Part shown: piece after piece, positions 20,210-33,300 of the stretch
Numbering within the stretch: position 1 is the stretch's first letter
Layout of the letters: each line of letters opens with the position of its first letter
Assembly: GCA_041485695.1 (NCBI GenBank)
Contig: JBGPJZ010000003.1
Location: 1 to 57,113 of the forward strand
DNA from: Minisyncoccia bacterium
Lineage (GTDB): Bacteria; Patescibacteriota; Minisyncoccia; Phycocordibacterales; Phycocordibacteraceae
Reading direction: 5' to 3'
DNA: 57,113 nucleotides
Program-made: the position numbers and the translations under genes
The notes under the pieces: generated by a model
What the model was told of the DNA's origin: nothing
Seen by the model: the letters and a program-made list of their open reading frames with translations, nothing else
Databases searched by the model: none

Positions 20210-20716
20210 TCACGCAGCGGCTGCTTCAAGCGCAGCATCAAGTTCGCTATCCGAGACGCCTTCCGCCTTCACTTCGGGCTCAGCGACCTTCATCGCCATG
20301 AGGCGCATCTCCGCTGCATGGCGCGCCGCATCCTTGGTCGTAATCACATCGATAAAGCGGGCAATGCGCCCCTCCTCCTTCACGGCCTCAAGCACCTTCT
20401 CGTGGTTTTGGGTTGAAGTCTCATACGCAATCCACGCAAAAAAGGCTGAATCGAAATCGCGCCGACCCGCGGTCTCTTGACGAGAGATTGTGTAGGCGAG
20501 CGGAATCTTCTCGGGCTCCCCTTCCGCAACGAGGGCTCCCTGCTTCTCGATAACATCCTTCACCGCCTGGTAGGCCTTCTTGACCTCCTCTGAAGGGAGC
20601 TCTGGGTCAAGATGAAAACCGAGTTCGTAGACATGTGAACCACCACCCTCGTCGGCCTCCGCGAGTTCATCCTCTGCGCTCCGCCAGCCGGCGGATCTGT
20701 CATCCTTCTTAGCCAT
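20210..20716 (-). CDS. rpsF: 30S ribosomal protein S6 with N-terminal extension
   Basis: YELGFHL, KIPLAYTI, position in the rpsF-ssb-rpsR operon. Confidence 0.9.
   Translation of the reverse strand: MAKKDDRSAGWRSAEDELAEADEGGGSHVYELGFHLDPELPSEEVKKAYQAVKDVIEKQGALVAEGEPEKIPLAYTISRQETAGRRDFDSAFFAWIAYETSTQNHEKVLEAVKEEGRIARFIDVITTKDAARHAAEMRLMAMKVAEPEVKAEGVSDSELDAALEAAAA
20680..20695. repeat. Palindromic element family A inside rpsF (encodes SAGWR)
   Basis: tccgccagccggcgga, 15/16 identical to the 11697 copy. Confidence 0.65.
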
Positions 20717-20728
20717 AATGAGGGCACT

Positions 20729-21733
20729 CTAGCATCTGTTTTTTGCCTTCGCAAGCACCTGATCTTGGAGTTTTCTGGTATTGCCATGCGAAAGGAGACC
20801 GAGATAGGAAGCGACCGTCTCTCTCTTTCCTTCTGTTTCTTCAATACGCCGGAACATTCTCCGCTTGGTTTTTGTCCGTAATACTCTATGGTCAGGAAAA
20901 TGCACCCAGCCGAGGAAATCAATGCCCGAAGCAAGCGTAGTAACTGAGACTTTATCCGGATGCATTTCAAGTTTCAACCGCTTCCGCAAAAACACTTCCA
21001 TATAGGGAAGTGTTTTAACAAGCCATGCGCGGTCTTGAGAGAGAAGAACGAAGTCATCAGCATATCGAATATAATATTTTACTTTGAGTTTGTGCTTTAC
21101 GAACTGGTCAAACTCATTCATATAGATGTTCACGAGAAGTTGGGACGTGAGATTGCCGAGCGGTAATCCTTTGCCGAAAGCAGTAGAGTGGAAACTTTCA
21201 ATTACGTTCCGCAATAGCAGTAGAATTTGTTCGTCGGAGATATTCCAGCGCAAAATGGTAAGCAAGGCCGGCTGGTCAATAGATGCGAAGAACTTGCGGA
21301 TGTCGCACTTGAGCACCCAGAGCGTTTTCGTGTGATTCTTACTTGCCTGATAGGCACGCCGTCGAAACATGTTCATCGCTCGGTGCGTTCCTTTCCCTTC
21401 TCGGCAAGAATACGAGTCCGCGATAAAGGTGCGGTCGAAAAAGGGGTAGAGTTTGCGATAAAGCGCGTGGTGGAGAAGCCGATCGCGCACGCTCGCTTTG
21501 TGGATATCGCGCGGCTTCGGGTCATTGATTTTGAAGTGTTCATACCCTCCATGCTGGTAGGTGCCAGAGACAAGATCGGCGTGGAGTTTCGAAATATTCT
21601 CTATAAGATTGTACTCAAACGCTTGCACATCTTTCTTCTTTTGCTTGCCACGGGCAAATTCCTTCCATGCATCGAGCAAATTTTCGGTAGAAATGATATC
21701 GTCGTAGGAATGAGAAATGCTGATTCCGCCCAT
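20729..21733 (-). CDS. DGR reverse transcriptase
   Basis: GLPLGNLTSQ and YIRYADDFV motifs, PRDIHKASVRDRLLHHA, KCDIRKFF. Start at ATG 21733 (or GTG 21760). The longer 432-aa ORF is antisense avd. Confidence 0.95.
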   Translation of the reverse strand: MGGISISHSYDDIISTENLLDAWKEFARGKQKKKDVQAFEYNLIENISKLHADLVSGTYQHGGYEHFKINDPKPRDIHKASVRDRLLHHALYRKLYPFFDRTFIADSYSCREGKGTHRAMNMFRRRAYQASKNHTKTLWVLKCDIRKFFASIDQPALLTILRWNISDEQILLLLRNVIESFHSTAFGKGLPLGNLTSQLLVNIYMNEFDQFVKHKLKVKYYIRYADDFVLLSQDRAWLVKTLPYMEVFLRKRLKLEMHPDKVSVTTLASGIDFLGWVHFPDHRVLRTKTKRRMFRRIEETEGKRETVASYLGLLSHGNTRKLQDQVLAKAKNRC

Positions 21734-22142
21734 TCTCTTGAGAGTACCCCCCCCCCGCACGGTTTCGCAAGAAAAATTGGTGCCGGTGGTGTTGAAATTG
21801 AAAGAAGCGTATCTCGCGTGGCAAACGGCGCTCCCCCACGTCAGCAAAGCACGTCGGCAAACCATCGCCGCACGCATTGATGCGGCACTTCTCGACACGC
21901 TTGAATACGCATTTCGCGCCGAGTATCTTTCAGGAGAACGGAAAATGGGTGCGCTTGAGACGTCTATCGCAAGACTTGATGTTGCTAAATTCTTTCTGCT
22001 TGTTGGATGGGAGTGCAACGCTATCACGAGCGCTCAACACTTTCGAATAGCCGGAGTTCTAGTTGATGCAAGCAAGATGCTAGTCGGCTGGCGTTCATAT
22101 CTTGAAAAGAAAACTCCCGCAAGCGGAGGCGGGAGAAAGTAA
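21717..22142 (+). CDS. avd: Avd (accessory variability determinant) four-helix-bundle protein
   Basis: VPVVLKLKEAYLAW...RQTIAARIDAALLDTLE...IARLDVAKFFL...ASKMLVGWRSYL follows the Avd pattern. Start could also be TTG 21778. Confidence 0.85.
   Translation: MLIPPILLRVPPPRTVSQEKLVPVVLKLKEAYLAWQTALPHVSKARRQTIAARIDAALLDTLEYAFRAEYLSGERKMGALETSIARLDVAKFFLLVGWECNAITSAQHFRIAGVLVDASKMLVGWRSYLEKKTPASGGGRK
22105..22135 (-). terminator. Terminator-like hairpin immediately 3' of TR
   Basis: Stem ctcccgc/gcgggag (22114-22135), followed on the minus strand by TTTTCTTTTC. Confidence 0.6.
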
Positions 22143-22147
22143 GACTT

Positions 22148-22255
22148 GTTTCGGACGAGAATGCGATTGTCAGCATTCCAGACGTTGCTGTTGTCGAGCC
22201 GGTTGACGTTCGAGTTCCAATCGCGCTCATCGCGATTGACGTTGCCAACCGAGAC
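22148..22255 (-). repeat. DGR template repeat (TR)
   Basis: 108 nt with 28 adenines, rich in AAC/AAT codons. Identical to the VR at all 80 non-A positions. Confidence 0.97.
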
Positions 22256-22510
22256 GCTTCGTGCCGCGCGCCATCCATTACGCCAGCGAAGGCCACCATC
22301 CCTTGAATACACCACAAGGGTGCTTCATTTTTCTAACACAGAGTACCGTGAAGAAAAACTGGTCGCTCTCGGGACTGTATCTAATTTGGGGCATTGAACC
22401 CACAAGCACGCGGCACCAACTTGTATTTCTTTTTTCGGGCGTTTTGTACCCGGAACCTCGCCACCTCAAGCGCATGGCCAGAGATGCCAGCGTGTTCAGG
22501 CAAAAGAATA

Positions 22511-22540
22511 CACCCTCCCGCCATTGTAGACGAGAGGGTG
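22511..22540 (-). terminator. GC-rich hairpin downstream of the DGR target gene
   Basis: 10-bp stem caccctcccg/cgagagggtg with one wobble, T-rich tail on the minus strand. Confidence 0.6.
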
Positions 22541-22576
22541 CAGGATTTCGACGCCCAAATACAGGGACCGGAAGGG

Positions 22577-23287
22577 TCAGAGTTTCGAAGCGTCCAAGTT
22601 GCGGACGAGAATGCGACTGCCAGCATCCCAGACGCGGCTGTAGCCGAGCCGGCCGACGCCCGAGCGCCAATCGCGCCCACCGCGAAAGACGTAGCCAACC
22701 GAGACGGGGTTATTTTTATCTCCAGTTTTCACCGGGAAAAAATTACCCCAGCCGTCGGTACGCATACCAGTCTTCTCACCGCGCTCGGTCTTCTCGGCCA
22801 TTTCTTCGGCTTGCGCTAAAGTCATGGTGTGACCGCGCGCAATGAGGAGTTCTCCGATTTCTTTGACTGGCGTGTCAGCCGAGACACCGAGAATCGGCGC
22901 AAACCACTTGACGAATGTTGCGTCCTCGGTGGAAGCGAGCGTCGTGATTGCGCAAGCGTCGGTTTTCGGCTGATTGGCCGGGAGCCAGCGGTCAAAGTCG
23001 CTGTCACGGCCGCCCCGTGCCCAGACACTGCCGACGAAACACTGTATCGTCTTCTTGGCAGCAACTGCGCCGAGTTGAGTTGTCGCGACTGATTCGAGCA
23101 GTTTGCGCGTCTCGACTCTCGCCGATACCGACGCCACTTCCGGAGGACCGAAGCCGGAAAGTAATGTCTTGGTTGCAGCTGGATCATCCATCCATCCGTT
23201 CATGGTTGCATCGTCCATTTCCGGCATGTTCTGAATGACGAAGCCGAGGAACGCGGCGGTTTTGTGGTCAAAGGCCTTCGCACTCAT
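22577..23287 (-). CDS. DGR variable (target) protein with C-terminal VR, probably CLec-type display; no signal peptide
   Basis: AAGGAG before ATG 23287. The VR encodes VSVGYVFRGGRDWRSGVGRLGYSRVWDAGSRILVRN. Confidence 0.92.
   Translation of the reverse strand: MSAKAFDHKTAAFLGFVIQNMPEMDDATMNGWMDDPAATKTLLSGFGPPEVASVSARVETRKLLESVATTQLGAVAAKKTIQCFVGSVWARGGRDSDFDRWLPANQPKTDACAITTLASTEDATFVKWFAPILGVSADTPVKEIGELLIARGHTMTLAQAEEMAEKTERGEKTGMRTDGWGNFFPVKTGDKNNPVSVGYVFRGGRDWRSGVGRLGYSRVWDAGSRILVRNLDASKL
22598..22705 (-). repeat. DGR variable repeat (VR)
   Basis: 19 differences from TR, all at TR adenines (12 A>G, 4 A>T, 3 A>C). Confidence 0.97.
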
Positions 23288-23366
23288 GTGCGCTTCTCCT
23301 TGTCGGACAGCCCGCGATTCCCAATGAATCAAGGTGCTTCCTAGATACCACTATACACCCATAGGC

Positions 23367-24197
23367 CTATTCTGTCAAGGTGTTATTGAAAATAGGCCGT
23401 ATTTTAAAGAGATTTTTGGCGTTTTGGAGGAGAGCTAAGTGGACGGTCTCAAAATCCTCCCCGCGGATTTCGGCGACCTTGGCGACAACATCTTGGACGG
23501 CCAAAGGGTCATTGCGGCTTCCGCGGGCGCGGTTGGTGGGTGGGACATACGGAGAGTCAGTCTCGGACAAAATCATATTGAGAGGCGCCGAACGAATAAC
23601 CTGATCGTAATCGCGCGCAAAAGTGATGACCGCAGTGAATGAAATAGTAAATCCAAGATCAAAGAAGGCCTGCGCCTCTCCTATACCACCCACAAAGAAA
23701 TGAATGTCGCCACGCAGATTTGGATGCGCAGTTTTCGCTTCTTTCAGAATCGCAATCAGGTCCTGATACGCGTCCATCGTGCCTTTAGAAGGGCGCGAGT
23801 GGATGATGAGCGGCTTATCAAGCTCCGCCGCGAGCGCGATATGTAGTTTCAAAACTGTTTTCTGCGTATTCTTGATTTCGTCATTCACTTCTGCCGGCCG
23901 AAAATAATCCAAGCCGCACTCCCCTATCGCGACGACTTTCGGATTCTCCGCAAGCAGGCGATACGTTGCGACATCAAACCCTTCTGCCTGTGTTCGATTC
24001 GGGTGCAACCCCACGGAGGCATAGAGATTCTCGTGGCCCTCTACCAACTCAACGGCTTTCCTTGAAGATTCAAAATCGCACCCGACCACAATCCCCGCCA
24101 CTTCTTGCTCTTTCATCTTCTCAATAATCTCTGCTTGATCTGTATCAAACGCATCGAACTGCACGTGGCAGTGCGCATCAAAATACTTCGCGTTCAT
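23367..24197 (-). CDS. tatD: TatD family hydrolase
   Basis: DAHCHV, VGLHP, IGECGLDY, IIHSR, ETDSPY. Confidence 0.95.
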   Translation of the reverse strand: MNAKYFDAHCHVQFDAFDTDQAEIIEKMKEQEVAGIVVGCDFESSRKAVELVEGHENLYASVGLHPNRTQAEGFDVATYRLLAENPKVVAIGECGLDYFRPAEVNDEIKNTQKTVLKLHIALAAELDKPLIIHSRPSKGTMDAYQDLIAILKEAKTAHPNLRGDIHFFVGGIGEAQAFFDLGFTISFTAVITFARDYDQVIRSAPLNMILSETDSPYVPPTNRARGSRNDPLAVQDVVAKVAEIRGEDFETVHLALLQNAKNLFKIRPIFNNTLTE

Positions 24198-27925: not shown

Positions 27926-29806
27926 TTATTGCACAGCCGCCTTCGTGGGGGTATAGCCGGGGTCGGTCGGGGTCTCGGTGGAGACAGAGCTCCCTGTCGT
28001 CGTTACTTGCACTTGGGCATAGCGATCAAAGGCTGAAAAAGCGGGGGCGCTCGTAAGCGTCGGAACCGAGCCGCGCTGACTCGTACTCGGGGTCAATACC
28101 ACCTGAAACGCCACCTGACGAGAGGCACCGCCACCAATGTCGCCCATCTGCCACGTAACGGCGTGCGAGGGCGCGTCATAGCTGATGGAGCCGTCAGAGG
28201 GCGATGTCACTCCAGGAAAGGCGATGTATGAGGGGAGCGTGGCTGAAACGACGGCGCCAGCAAGATCATTGCCTGCATTCGCCACGCTCCACTCTATAGT
28301 GTAGGTGGTCGGCTGATCTGCTTTCGGAGGCACGGGACCCGAATTTGCGAAGGGCCCCGATGCGTGGAGCGAGGCCGCAGTAAAGGTGACAGCGCTTACG
28401 AGCTTGATGACCTTCGAGGATGAAGCCGAGACCTGCTCTGGCACGCCTGACTGCCCGACGCGCTCACCAGCGATAGATACGGTGAGGGTGATGGCCGAGT
28501 TGCGCGGCGCGTTCGTAAGAGTCGAGAAGGTGAAGGTGCCAAGCCCCGAAGCGCCTGGCGCGAGTGAAGCCAAGGTCGCATCAGTGTCCCGACTAAAAAT
28601 GACGGTGCGGTCAGCCGAGCGATAAAAGCCGTTATGCGCCTGGACGCTTGCGGGATCGAGCGCCGCGCCGCTAATCGCAATATCAATCTCTGCATTAGTG
28701 AGCGGTACTGAAAGCGCGTTCGCCCACGCAACGCCAACGGTTACCGGGGCTCCGGGGGCGACGGCGGGAGCTGCGGCTGAACTCCCGTTCACTGTAAACG
28801 ACGTCGTGAGGAATGGCGCCGTGATGTTGATGCTCGCTTCTTGCGTCATGTAGCCTACCGCGAGCGAAGGGTCACTCGCTGCCTTCGCCGTTCCGATGGT
28901 GAAATGAAAAACGCGCACCTCATTGTTTTGGCCGTTCAATGTTCCCGTGAGCGTGACAGTTTTAGAAGCGCCCGGCTTCAAGGTCCCCAAGGGGAAATTG
29001 GTACCAACTGCGGGGAGCGAAGAGTCGGTGACGAGATAGCCGGCGGGGTATTGTGCCGCAAGCACGACCCCTTCGACAGGCTGCGTCGCGTTCGAGCGGG
29101 CTGTTACCCGTATCGTAAAAGGCTTCCCAGACACCGTTTCAGACACGGTATCGACTGTGACCGAAAGGGGCGCTGTCGAGATTACGACCGGATACGTCGA
29201 TTTTTTCACAAAAACAGCATTTGAGCGCGAGGTACCAAATGAGAGTGAAACCGAGATGGTCGGCTGCGCGCCCTGCGCTCCGAACAAGACCGCAGAGATC
29301 GAGCGCTCGACTGTCTCGCCCGGAGAAAGCGTCCCGAGATTTTCACTGAAACGTGGATATGCAGCGGTGACATCGGTCGCGCTCCTGGTACCTTCAGGGA
29401 AGGCCACTTCAAGAGTGGCATTTTCGACCGACGTGGAGTTCTTATTTGTGACGACGATCGAAAGGGGGACGGTATCGCCGCCGGCTACCGTAGTAGGACC
29501 TTGGATAGTGAGCTCGATATTATCTACTGATACCGTGTTACCCCCGGTATAAAACAAGAACGCCGAAACGCCAATGGAGATGACGAAAAAGGCGATGGCA
29601 ACAAAGAAGAAGCGTGATGCGAAATGCACGTGATGTGCGGCGCCGAAGGATGAGAGTTGCAAGCGTTCTTTCCACGCGTGCGGTATTGAAGAATCAGTGC
29701 TACGAGGAAACACCGGAGCCACGGGCGGAGAAGCCTCGCCTGGAGAGTAGAGGCGTTCACGCGCCTTACCAAGCGCGCTTAAACCAGGATCTTTCTCAGG
29801 AGGCAT
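27926..29806 (-). CDS. Single-pass membrane protein with tandem Ig-like/DUF11-like domains
   Basis: One TM followed by beta-rich repeats (YTIEWSVANAGN, VTWQMGDI). Start set at MPPEKD, 6 nt after TATAAT. Confidence 0.8.
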   Translation of the reverse strand: MPPEKDPGLSALGKARERLYSPGEASPPVAPVFPRSTDSSIPHAWKERLQLSSFGAAHHVHFASRFFFVAIAFFVISIGVSAFLFYTGGNTVSVDNIELTIQGPTTVAGGDTVPLSIVVTNKNSTSVENATLEVAFPEGTRSATDVTAAYPRFSENLGTLSPGETVERSISAVLFGAQGAQPTISVSLSFGTSRSNAVFVKKSTYPVVISTAPLSVTVDTVSETVSGKPFTIRVTARSNATQPVEGVVLAAQYPAGYLVTDSSLPAVGTNFPLGTLKPGASKTVTLTGTLNGQNNEVRVFHFTIGTAKAASDPSLAVGYMTQEASINITAPFLTTSFTVNGSSAAAPAVAPGAPVTVGVAWANALSVPLTNAEIDIAISGAALDPASVQAHNGFYRSADRTVIFSRDTDATLASLAPGASGLGTFTFSTLTNAPRNSAITLTVSIAGERVGQSGVPEQVSASSSKVIKLVSAVTFTAASLHASGPFANSGPVPPKADQPTTYTIEWSVANAGNDLAGAVVSATLPSYIAFPGVTSPSDGSISYDAPSHAVTWQMGDIGGGASRQVAFQVVLTPSTSQRGSVPTLTSAPAFSAFDRYAQVQVTTTGSSVSTETPTDPGYTPTKAAVQ

Positions 29807-30353: not shown

Positions 30354-33300
30354 CAACGATGAGATTAAAGGTGACCATACCTGTTGAAAGCTCGACCGAG
30401 TACTTCCCTCCCGGCACTCGCTCAGCATACGCTTTGTCTTTAGGCGAGAGGCCTTCGGCCTTTCTCGCCTCCGCAACCGCGCGCGCCATCTCACGCTCAT
30501 CGCCCTCTTTTATGAGCGCGGGTGTAAGGTGTGTATCAAGAGAATATGACGGCGCGTCCTGGCCCAAAGGGGCTAGCAGGACTTTTTTAACGTTTAACTC
30601 TTCTGCAAGGATCTGTGCTACATCATTCCACAGCGGAGGAGGCAGGAAAGAATGTTTAATTGTGAAAGATGCTAAAGGTTGTCGTACTTTTATTTCAGCT
30701 CGTTGCCGCGCTTGAAGTCCGAAAGAGGCGATTCCGCGCGCGAGTTGCATGGCCGCAAGAATATCTCGGTCTTTTTTGTTATCAAAAATGCTTAGCCACG
30801 AACGCTTCACAATTGGCCATGCTGCAAGATGCACGCTCTCCGGATCATCATGACTGCGGACTTTTCTGAAGACGTCCTCCGCGATAAATGGCGCAAAGGG
30901 AGCGATAAGGAGCGAGATCGTGCACAACGTTTCGCGGAGCGTTTCAGTCGCGGCCGCATCTCCCTCGCGCGCACGGTCGCGGATGCGCCGCACATACCAC
31001 TGCGAGAGGTCCTCGCAGAGCGCGGCAATCTCACGCGACGCGTCATACAAATGGTATTCATCAAACGCCTCGGTCACTCTCCGCGTCGCTTGTGCGACGC
31101 GCGTCTTCATCCATCTGTCGATTATTTGCTCCTTTCCTTCTTTCTTTTCTCCCGCGAACAATTCGTAAAACTTCGCGCTATTCTCGAGCCAAGAAATGAC
31201 ACGCGCAGACTCTTTGAGCGTTTTTTCATCATAGTTCTTAGAGTCTCCTGCCTGATTGACGTAGTACATCCAGAAGCGGAGCGTATCAGCGCCCCACTTC
31301 TCTATTTCCGCCCACGGCTCGACGACATTCCCCTTCGACTTGCTCATCTTCTTCCCTTCTGCATCGAGCAGGTGCCCGAGGCAAATCACGTTTTTATACG
31401 CACGACCGCGACCCATCAAAACCCCGACCGCGAGCAGGGTGTAGAACCATCCGCGCGTCTGATCAATCGCTTCTGAAATGAAGTCGGCGGGATACACGAC
31501 GTGTTTTGGCTCCTGCGCAAAGGGCATCGAGCCGGAATCGAACCATACGTCCATGACCTCGGGTACTCGCCGCATCTCCTTTCCCGAATCCGAAATCAAA
31601 ACAACGTCATCAATGTATGGCCGATGCAAATCGAGCTCGTAATCGTCATTGTGAGAAAGAGGTACGAAATCAAGCTCGCGCGACCGCCCCGTTGGCATAC
31701 TGAGTCCGGCGATGAGACGTTTCGATCCGTGCCTGTCTGCGCCTTGTGCTACGGCGCCCAATGTCTCGACACCGACGCCATGGGTAATGATGAGGATATG
31801 TTGACCCGCCTGGCGGCGTTCAATATCGTGCAAAAATGCTCCGAAGCGGTTCTTTGCGTCCTGATAGCTCTCGCCGCCTGGGACTTTATCGTCATACTGA
31901 TGCCCATCACGAAATGACTGGAAGTCGGCTATGGGCCGATGGTTAAAATCGCCGAACTCAAATTCGCGCAAGCGGTCATCGTAGGTGATGTTCTCTTTAG
32001 GAATAGCGAGTAGCTCCGCAACAATCTCGGCTGTCTCCCGTCCGCGAAGGAGCGGTGAAGCGTAGATGCGAGTTGTGCGAGAGAGCGCACGAGTTGCAGC
32101 TTTGACTTCAAGTTTCCCTTGCAGGGTCAATGGATTCCCGGCTCGATCATTGTTCGCCATACCCTTTACGTTGTGCTCGGCCTCGCCGTGGCGCATCACA
32201 AAATATTTGTTGTCTGATTTTTTGGTACGCTTTTTTAATTCAGCGACAGAACCTATAACCAGCCGCTCCTTTTTGTCGGCAGTCTCCCAGACCGGGAGCG
32301 GCGTCGCCCAATAGCGCTCGCGCGAGATCGCCCAATCCTTTACATTCGCGAGCCACTCCCCCATGCGTCCATCACGGATATGTTCCGGCTCCCAACGAAT
32401 CTTCTGATTTTCCGCAACAAGCTCGTCGCGCACCTCCGACATGCGGAAATACCACGAGTCGCGGGCATAGTAGATGAGTCGCGTCTTGCACCGCCAACAA
32501 AAGGGGTACGTGTGCGTGTATGACTCTTTTTTGAACAACAGGTCGCGTGCCTGCAAATCCTTCAATATTTCAACCGACGTCTCTTCTTCTACGACCGAAC
32601 GACCAGCAAGGAATCCGGTGCCTTCGATAAACTTCCCGTCCGGTGCAACTAAATGCACTTTCGGCAGTCCGATTTTCTGTCCAAGTTCAAAGTCGTCCTG
32701 CCCATACATCACGGCTGTATGAACGATACCCGTCCCCTCTTCGGTGGTTACGAAATCTGCAGCATACACCTGAAACGCCTTATCAAACTTTTGTTTCTCA
32801 GTTTCCGGCGCGAGATTTTTCGCAAAGTCGTAGAGTGGTTTGTACTTCTTGCCCACGAGATCAATGCCTTTGACGAGCCGTAGGGGTCGCGAAGAAATAG
32901 TCTGGCCGAGCGAAGCGAGGAGACCCGAGGACTTTTCTGCAGCGACTCCTGCGGCGAGGATGAAGCGCTCTCCGTTGACTTCGTGCACGCTATAGTCAAT
33001 ATCCTTCCCAACCGCGAGGGCAACGTTCCCCGGCAAGGTCCACGGCGTCGTCGTCCAAGCAAGGAGATACGTGCCGGGTTCGTCAACGAGTTCAAATTTC
33101 GCGGTGATCGTTAAATCTTTTACGTCCTCATATCCTTGCGCGAGTTCGTGCGAGGAGAGCGCAGTGCCGCACCGCGGGCACCAGGGCACCACTTTATAAT
33201 CCCTGTAGAGCCGGCCGTCGTCAGAGACTTTTTTGAAAATACCCCAGAGCGCCTCCATGTAGGAGGGGTCGGAGGTGAAGTAGGCCGAGGACTGGTCCAC

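Follow-up and report, generated by a model that had tools for sequence, protein, structure and literature searches.

The question raised by this locus is whether an avd gene that is inverted relative to the TR and RT genes on either side of it amounts to a new DGR organization with a built-in regulatory device, or belongs to a layout that is already known. The original prediction, made for a 57,113-nucleotide stretch of DNA (hereinafter, the window), was that avd lies on the opposite strand between TR and RT and overlaps the 5' end of the RT gene, that the promoter of each gene is located inside the other gene and that the transcripts are mutually antisense; the novelty of this arrangement was implied.

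A complete chromosomal DGR is located within the window at 20729-23378, with the target gene and its VR, the TR and the RT gene all encoded on the minus strand. The portion of the cassette that comprises the target and the two repeats consists of the following features.

23350..23378, minus strand: candidate promoter, TTGACA-17-TATAGT, 5' of the target gene (consensus scan, 11 of 12 positions; a consensus match alone)
22577..23332, minus strand: DGR target gene, 251 aa, with the VR at its 3' end (ORF list)
22598..22706, minus strand: VR, a 109-nt direct repeat of the TR with 83% identity
22509..22542, minus strand: GC-rich hairpin of 14 bp, about 35 nt past the target stop codon (scan for terminator-like structures)
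22148..22256 (approximate limits), minus strand: TR, a direct repeat of the VR, with mismatches from A

The VR core is contained in the ORF 23332..22577 and ends 18 nt ahead of the target stop codon. All 19 TR/VR mismatches in the BLAST core fall at TR adenines, and a wider alignment frame (22262..22146) contains 24 A-to-N differences along with only 3 non-A differences, which are located at the edges, outside the repeat core. This pattern of divergence implies past mutagenic activity of the DGR. The target protein showed no match to any Pfam or NCBIfam family, and an Rfam scan of 20400-23600, with E values up to 1, detected no known RNA family. The hairpin past the target gene could be either an inverted repeat downstream of the VR or a terminator. 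The two protein-coding genes on the other side of the TR are the following.

20729..21733, minus strand: DGR RT, 334 aa plus stop, likely start ATG 21733 (Pfam RVT_1, E value 1.2e-23)
21780..22142, plus strand: avd, 120-aa form (alternative start TTG 21777; longest ORF from ATG 21717)

The RT, for which GTG 21760 is an alternative start, contains the YADD motif at residue 224 and LGNLTSQ at residues 192-198; an SQ motif is typical of DGR RTs. The RT with its catalytic motif, the adenine-specific TR/VR pair and the position of the VR at the 3' end of the target ORF together identify the element as a DGR.

The plus-strand ORF 21717-22142 (141 aa), which sits between the TR and the RT gene on the opposite strand, was predicted to encode Avd, and this assignment held. 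The NCBIfam profile NF033474 (Avd) matches the ORF with an E value of 1.1e-6 and a score of 28.9 bits, against a curated cut-off of 80; the match covers positions 2-103 of the 104-position profile and residues 23-126 of the ORF. The Pfam scan of the window's own protein produced no direct match, and the Pfam family PF22296 (bAvd-like) was found in 13 of 15 close homologues, with the best E value of 6.9e-7. The 120-aa form was modeled with AlphaFold2 from an alignment of 15 homologues (pLDDT 87.9, pTM 0.80), and the model consists of four helices at residues 2-20, 23-47, 52-78 and 84-111. In a Foldseek search with this model, BPP-1 Avd was matched (4dwl_D, TM 0.80/0.89, rmsd 1.7), the top 19 PDB matches, and 24 of the top 25, were Avd or 23S-IVS-type four-helix bundles, and the top matches included the Avd chains of the DGR ribonucleoprotein (8ube, 8ub7) as well as 2rld. 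A profile search of the sequences of solved structures with the Avd alignment returned no matches. The protein is basic (pI 9.8) and has 64 homologues, with E values as low as 1e-70, one of which carries the NCBI name 'four helix bundle protein [Candidatus Kaiserbacteria]'; the 120-aa protein itself had no exact counterpart among the records of the contig collection. The product of the ORF is a genuine Avd with a basic pI and a four-helix-bundle fold.

Given that the ORF is a real avd gene, its inverted position, convergent with the TR, is confirmed. The coordinates and strands of the ORFs agree on this point: the avd stop codon (22140-22142) and the TR core 3' end lie 5 nt apart, and the orientation of avd is, as predicted, opposite to that in the three characterized DGRs (BPP-1, Legionella and Treponema). 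This layout is nevertheless not new. In the survey of Wu et al. (2018, Nucleic Acids Res 46:11; PMC5758913), Architecture B3 is denoted TR-(avd)-RT, where the parentheses stand for the reverse strand, and it was found in 90% of 126 CPR DGRs; DGR architectures are stably inherited, and components located on different strands need at least two transcription units (PMC5758913). Because avd is inverted, the window cassette likewise requires more than one transcription unit. With TR and RT on one strand and a reversed avd between them, the window has Architecture B3, and in the order of the components, their orientation and the host group it is the same as the published elements, with no difference in layout.

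The same arrangement was seen throughout a comparison set made up of the 80 RT loci nearest to that of the window among species-representative genomes (RT identity 63-72%). Almost all of these loci come from Patescibacteria MAGs, the nearest relatives being Kaiserbacteria and Paceibacterota MAGs. In every one of the 73 loci for which sufficient upstream sequence was available, an Avd homologue is encoded directly upstream of the RT gene, on the opposite strand. Next to the avd stop codon, 65 of 69 related loci have a TR that shares the strand of the RT gene and shows A-only mismatches; for 58 of these 65, the TR 3' end is located between -9 and +28 nt from the avd stop, most commonly 7 nt before it. 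Furthermore, the 620-kb genome to which the window belongs encodes two additional DGRs (RT 75% identical), which are arranged in the same way. The inverted avd is thus the published standard layout of CPR DGRs, the documented norm for this RT clade, and the orientation as such adds nothing new; the implied novelty has to be given up.

The regulatory part of the original prediction depends on where avd and RT start, and involves the following two features of the region between them.

21734..21779, no strand assigned: divergent avd-RT spacer (distances computed between likely starts)
21747..21756, no strand assigned: C10 (plus) / G10 (minus) homopolymer, 13 nt upstream of the RT ATG (sequence)

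A head-to-head overlap of 17-44 bp had been proposed, which requires that avd starts at ATG 21717 (17 bp with RT ATG 21733, 44 bp with RT GTG 21760). This range comes from the choice of the longest ORF. The Avd profile begins at residue 23 of that ORF, and the database gene call for the window Avd is a protein of 120 aa from GTG 21780; many homologues are 118-120 aa long. In the AlphaFold2 model, the whole bundle is already contained in the 120-aa form, with helix 1 beginning at residue 2. Two homologues, P0053 (MQQQFVPVV) and P0049 (MQQEKLVPVV), have an ATG just past the position of the C tract, and in many related loci a TTG is found 8-10 nt past the tract, at a conserved LLP motif. In at least 25 of 73 loci, as counted from the translations, an avd-frame stop codon occurs within 0-3 codons upstream of the tract, with no start codon in between. 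With avd starting at TTG 21777 or GTG 21780 and RT at ATG 21733, the two genes are divergent and separated by 43-46 bp, and the 5' overlap in the window is probably an artefact of the longest-ORF choice. The notion that the promoters have to be located inside the opposite genes is likewise not supported, given that these likely starts leave a spacer of 43-46 bp.

The evidence on avd starts is not uniform across the family. In the window, no stop codon interrupts the avd reading frame between ATG 21717 and the end of the C tract, and about a quarter of the called Avd homologues are long forms of 132-147 aa. Three related loci (L040, L063 and L080), in which the tract position is occupied by tetra- or heptanucleotide repeats, have no nearby avd start past the repeat and contain an in-frame ATG upstream of it, inside the RT 5' end; in these loci, a true overlap of about 21-41 bp seems likely. 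Whether the tract generally lies within translated sequence was approached through a frame test, in which in-frame starts upstream of the tract were counted at the observed tract length and with the tract one base shorter or longer. For avd, such starts were found in 25 loci at the observed length compared to 42 (shorter) and 30 (longer), and for RT, in 29 loci compared to 37 and 38, respectively, with no enrichment for either gene. Because upstream in-frame starts are not enriched at the observed tract length, a general translational switch operated by the tract was rejected as the default and was kept for the three aforementioned loci.

The simple repeat in the avd-RT junction is conserved. 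The C10/G10 tract is the sole G/C run of at least 8 in the 57-kb window, and the flanking DNA is depleted of such runs (6 G/C runs of at least 7 in 455 kb). At the tract position, a run of G5 to G14, mostly of 8-11, is present in 69 of 74 sequences (the window and 73 loci) and another simple repeat in four, namely (CTGG)10, (TGATTGC)11, (ATTG)7 and (GT)9, so that a simple repeat is found in 73 of the 74 sequences and a single one contains no repeat. The RT start, ATG or GTG, is located exactly 14 nt past the tract in 23 of 74 sequences, and there is no in-frame ATG or GTG start for RT past the tract in 20 of 74, a count that speaks against the reading favored below; a TAnnnT hexamer directly follows the tract in 28 of 74. 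Read along the RT strand, the window spacer contains TTGCGA, 8 nt, G10, TACTCT, 7 nt and ATG, a succession that would fit, at the level of a guess, a promoter that holds the tract inside its own spacer and yields a leaderless RT mRNA. In the reading favored below, RT and avd would be expressed divergently from the 43-46 bp spacer, and not from promoters deep in each other's coding regions, and the slippage-prone G/C tract may modulate one or both of these genes. A regulatory junction is still plausible because the conserved simple repeat sits in it.

Comparison of near-identical contigs gives a weak indication of change in tract length, with variation in one of four groups. In that group (99.4-99.6% identity), the tract lengths are C9, C13 and, ahead of an assembly gap, at least C11; the other three groups are constant, with C10 in 7 of 9 contigs, C9 in 2 of 2 and C9 in 2 of 2. 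In the literature searched, no report of a repeat between the avd and RT genes of a DGR was found, and the words promoter and divergent do not occur in the text of Wu et al. (2018; PMC5758913).

The opposite end of avd contains the second conserved element.

22104..22135, minus strand: terminator-like hairpin followed by TTTTCTTTTC, 13 nt past the TR (scan)

The hairpin proper, 22135..22114, has a 7-bp stem with 6 GC pairs, is followed by TTTTCTTTTC, and is antisense to the last codons of avd (EKKTPASGGGRK), which encode a tail of low confidence in the AlphaFold2 model. Under a strict rule, 49 of 68 related loci have an equivalent GC hairpin with a T tract in this position, and most of the remaining loci, as judged by eye, have a hairpin with a shorter T run. 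The 49 hairpins all differ in sequence, and the pairing is kept in each of them. Given this conserved hairpin and U tract 13 nt past the TR, the template RNA is probably a short separate transcript that ends there and does not run through avd into RT. In that case, the overlap between the TR RNA and the avd mRNA would be confined to approximately the last 35-40 nt of avd, and RT would not be co-transcribed with the TR. Extensive mutual antisense, as originally envisaged, would accordingly shrink to this short convergent segment. Another possibility is that this hairpin takes the functional role of the BPP-1 spacer. No description of a TR-proximal hairpin in the avd tail was found in the DGR papers searched.

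The reading that we favor, with a probability of roughly 85%, is that the window contains an ordinary CPR/Patescibacteria DGR of Architecture B3, with a predicted separate short TR RNA and a predicted divergent expression of avd and RT. Beyond this, we tentatively propose, at somewhat less than even odds, that the inverted avd is central to a compact control arrangement common to this clade of Patescibacteria DGRs, in which the avd tail is dual-coded with the hairpin and U tract that end or prime the TR RNA, and a hypermutable junction repeat randomly switches or tunes Avd and/or RT.

Three other explanations have to be weighed. The overlap could be real after all, in which case ATG 21717, within the 5' end of RT, would be the avd start codon and C10 would be read as Pro-Pro-Pro; one-base slips would then shift the frame of avd (and of RT, if it starts at GTG 21760), producing a phase switch with mutually antisense 5' ends. 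The open frame from 21717 is compatible with this possibility, the long-form homologues retain a similar stretch past the prolines (PPPRTVSQEKLVP) which, in our own reading, varies mostly at third codon positions across the subclade loci, and the three loci with long non-triplet repeats have in-frame ATGs upstream of the repeat and no nearby start downstream. However, both the Avd profile and the fold begin only at residue 23, at least 25 of 73 loci have an avd-frame stop 0-3 codons upstream of the tract, upstream in-frame starts become more numerous when the tract is shortened or lengthened by one base, and alternative starts past the tract are available in many loci (TTG at the LLP motif) or evident (ATG in P0053 and P0049). 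On balance, a real overlap in the window appears rather unlikely.

Slightly less likely still is the view that the inversion is a frozen historical event without regulatory meaning, and that the tract and the hairpin are by-products, for example, of a mutational hotspot and an ordinary terminator, respectively. This view accommodates the fact that the layout follows the RT phylogeny and so is explained by descent (PMC5758913), as well as the constancy of tract length in three of the four groups of near-identical contigs. It is harder to reconcile with the persistence of a simple repeat at one spot in 73 of 74 sequences, despite RT identities of 63-72% and only 6 runs in 455 kb of flanking DNA, with the presence of other repeat types in place of the homopolymer in 4 loci, with the fixed distance between the tract and the RT start, and with the maintenance of hairpin pairing through 49 different sequences. 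Finally, the ORF might not be a functional Avd, in line with the NCBIfam score under the curated cut-off and the lack of a direct Pfam match for the window's protein, or the layout might be a local misassembly. The fold, which matches that of BPP-1 Avd, the 64 homologues (E values as low as 1e-70) and the adjacency of avd and RT in 73 of 73 independent assemblies make this combined explanation exceedingly improbable; misassembly, in particular, is ruled out by the identical layout in these 73 assemblies and in the two paralogous DGRs of the same genome.

The favored reading, a B3 element with two conserved elements flanking avd, can be placed among known systems as follows. Neither the junction repeat nor the TR-proximal hairpin in the avd tail is described by Wu et al. 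(2018; PMC5758913). With the prototype DGR of BPP-1 (mtd-avd-TR-brt), the window element shares the YADD RT, the four-helix bundle of Avd, the adenine-specific TR/VR pair and a hairpin after the VR. In BPP-1, avd is located upstream of the TR on the same strand, and the RNA 3' of the TR (the spacer) runs toward brt and carries the priming site. In the window, by contrast, TR and RT flank an avd gene of opposite orientation, and a terminator-like hairpin occurs within 13 nt of the TR.

Simple-repeat phase variation provides the other comparison. In Haemophilus influenzae, TA repeats are located between the divergent hifA and hifB promoters, and in Neisseria meningitidis, porA has a poly-G tract in its promoter spacer. 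The window resembles these cases in that a slippage-prone tract is found in a short region separating two divergent genes and, on the RT strand, between -35-like and -10-like hexamers that are consensus guesses, and, as in a contingency locus, a slippage-prone repeat is conserved (73 of 74 sequences) where expression could be affected. It differs from hifA/hifB and porA in that in three related loci, the same ones in which an overlap seems likely, the repeat looks coding in avd and not promoter-located.

The potentially new biology at this locus is thus limited to the two conserved elements that flank avd, the TR-side hairpin and the junction repeat. To our knowledge, all mechanistic work on DGRs rests on the TR-spacer RNA of BPP-1. 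If the TR RNA ends in the avd-tail hairpin, the template would be a stand-alone short RNA, and the template RNA of CPR DGRs would be quite unlike that of BPP-1. If Avd or RT is under the control of the junction repeat, the most abundant group of cellular DGRs would switch hypermutation on and off at random, and targeted hypermutation would itself be phase-variable.

A simple repeat in the spacer between avd and RT is conserved among the sequences compared (the window and 73 related loci). The features of the window in the order of their coordinates, followed by the two additional DGR loci of the same genome, are:

20989-21016, within the RT coding sequence: 28-nt near-perfect palindrome, AAAACACTTCCCTATATGGAAGTGTTTT
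21747-21756, avd-RT spacer: G/C homopolymer, at the same position in the related loci L001-L080
22104-22135, minus strand: terminator-like hairpin with a U tract, 13 nt after TR
22509-22542, minus strand: 14-bp GC-rich hairpin, about 35 nt past the stop codon of the target gene
23350-23378, minus strand: near-consensus promoter TTGACA-17-TATAGT, upstream of the target gene
Contig 6, 31899-32876, plus strand: additional DGR locus (L094)
Contig 5, 28563-29519, minus strand: additional DGR locus (L095)

A homopolymer of G5 to G14 occupies the spacer in 69 of the 74 sequences, and four related loci carry a different repeat at the same spot, namely (CTGG)10 in L040, (TGATTGC)11 in L063, (ATTG)7 in L080 and (GT)9 in L062; only L057 has no junction repeat. 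Comparable runs are found just 6 times in 455 kb of flanking DNA. The genome to which the window belongs (620 kb, 97% complete) encodes three DGRs that share the VR-TR-(avd)-RT order, and in all three, the RTs of which are 75% identical, the tract is present as G9 to G11. In two public scaffolds, L091 (about 1470-1500) and L086, runs of N lie exactly at or beside the tract, which appears to be the point where these assemblies break.

No in-frame ATG or GTG for the RT was found 3' of the tract in 20 of the 74 sequences (L001, L004, L009, L013, L025, L047, L068 and others), and in several of these the region 5' of the tract offers no in-frame start either. Such sequences may represent off-state alleles or genes that begin at an unusual codon, or the tract may have been misassembled.

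The hairpin that follows TR is encoded on the antisense strand of the C-terminal tail of avd (EKKTP...GGRK) and is kept in most of the related loci, where the stem sequences differ and the pairing is retained; this terminator-like structure may determine where the template RNA ends on its 3' side. The hairpin beyond the target gene may be either the inverted repeat that follows VR in DGRs or a terminator.

The palindrome within the RT gene covers approximately residues 240-248 (KTLPYMEVF), and each of the genome's three RT paralogues has a 26-28-nt version, the contig 5 copy being set apart by a compensatory pair of substitutions, C to T and G to A. Among the 80 related loci, about 12 also have such a palindrome by our own count; when scored by pairing, 15 of the 80 reach at least 9 paired bases. 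In some loci its sequence is quite different, as in L012, where a 32-nt palindrome encodes EILPRVAGFL. The palindrome has the appearance of a structure under selection, at the level of either DNA or RNA.
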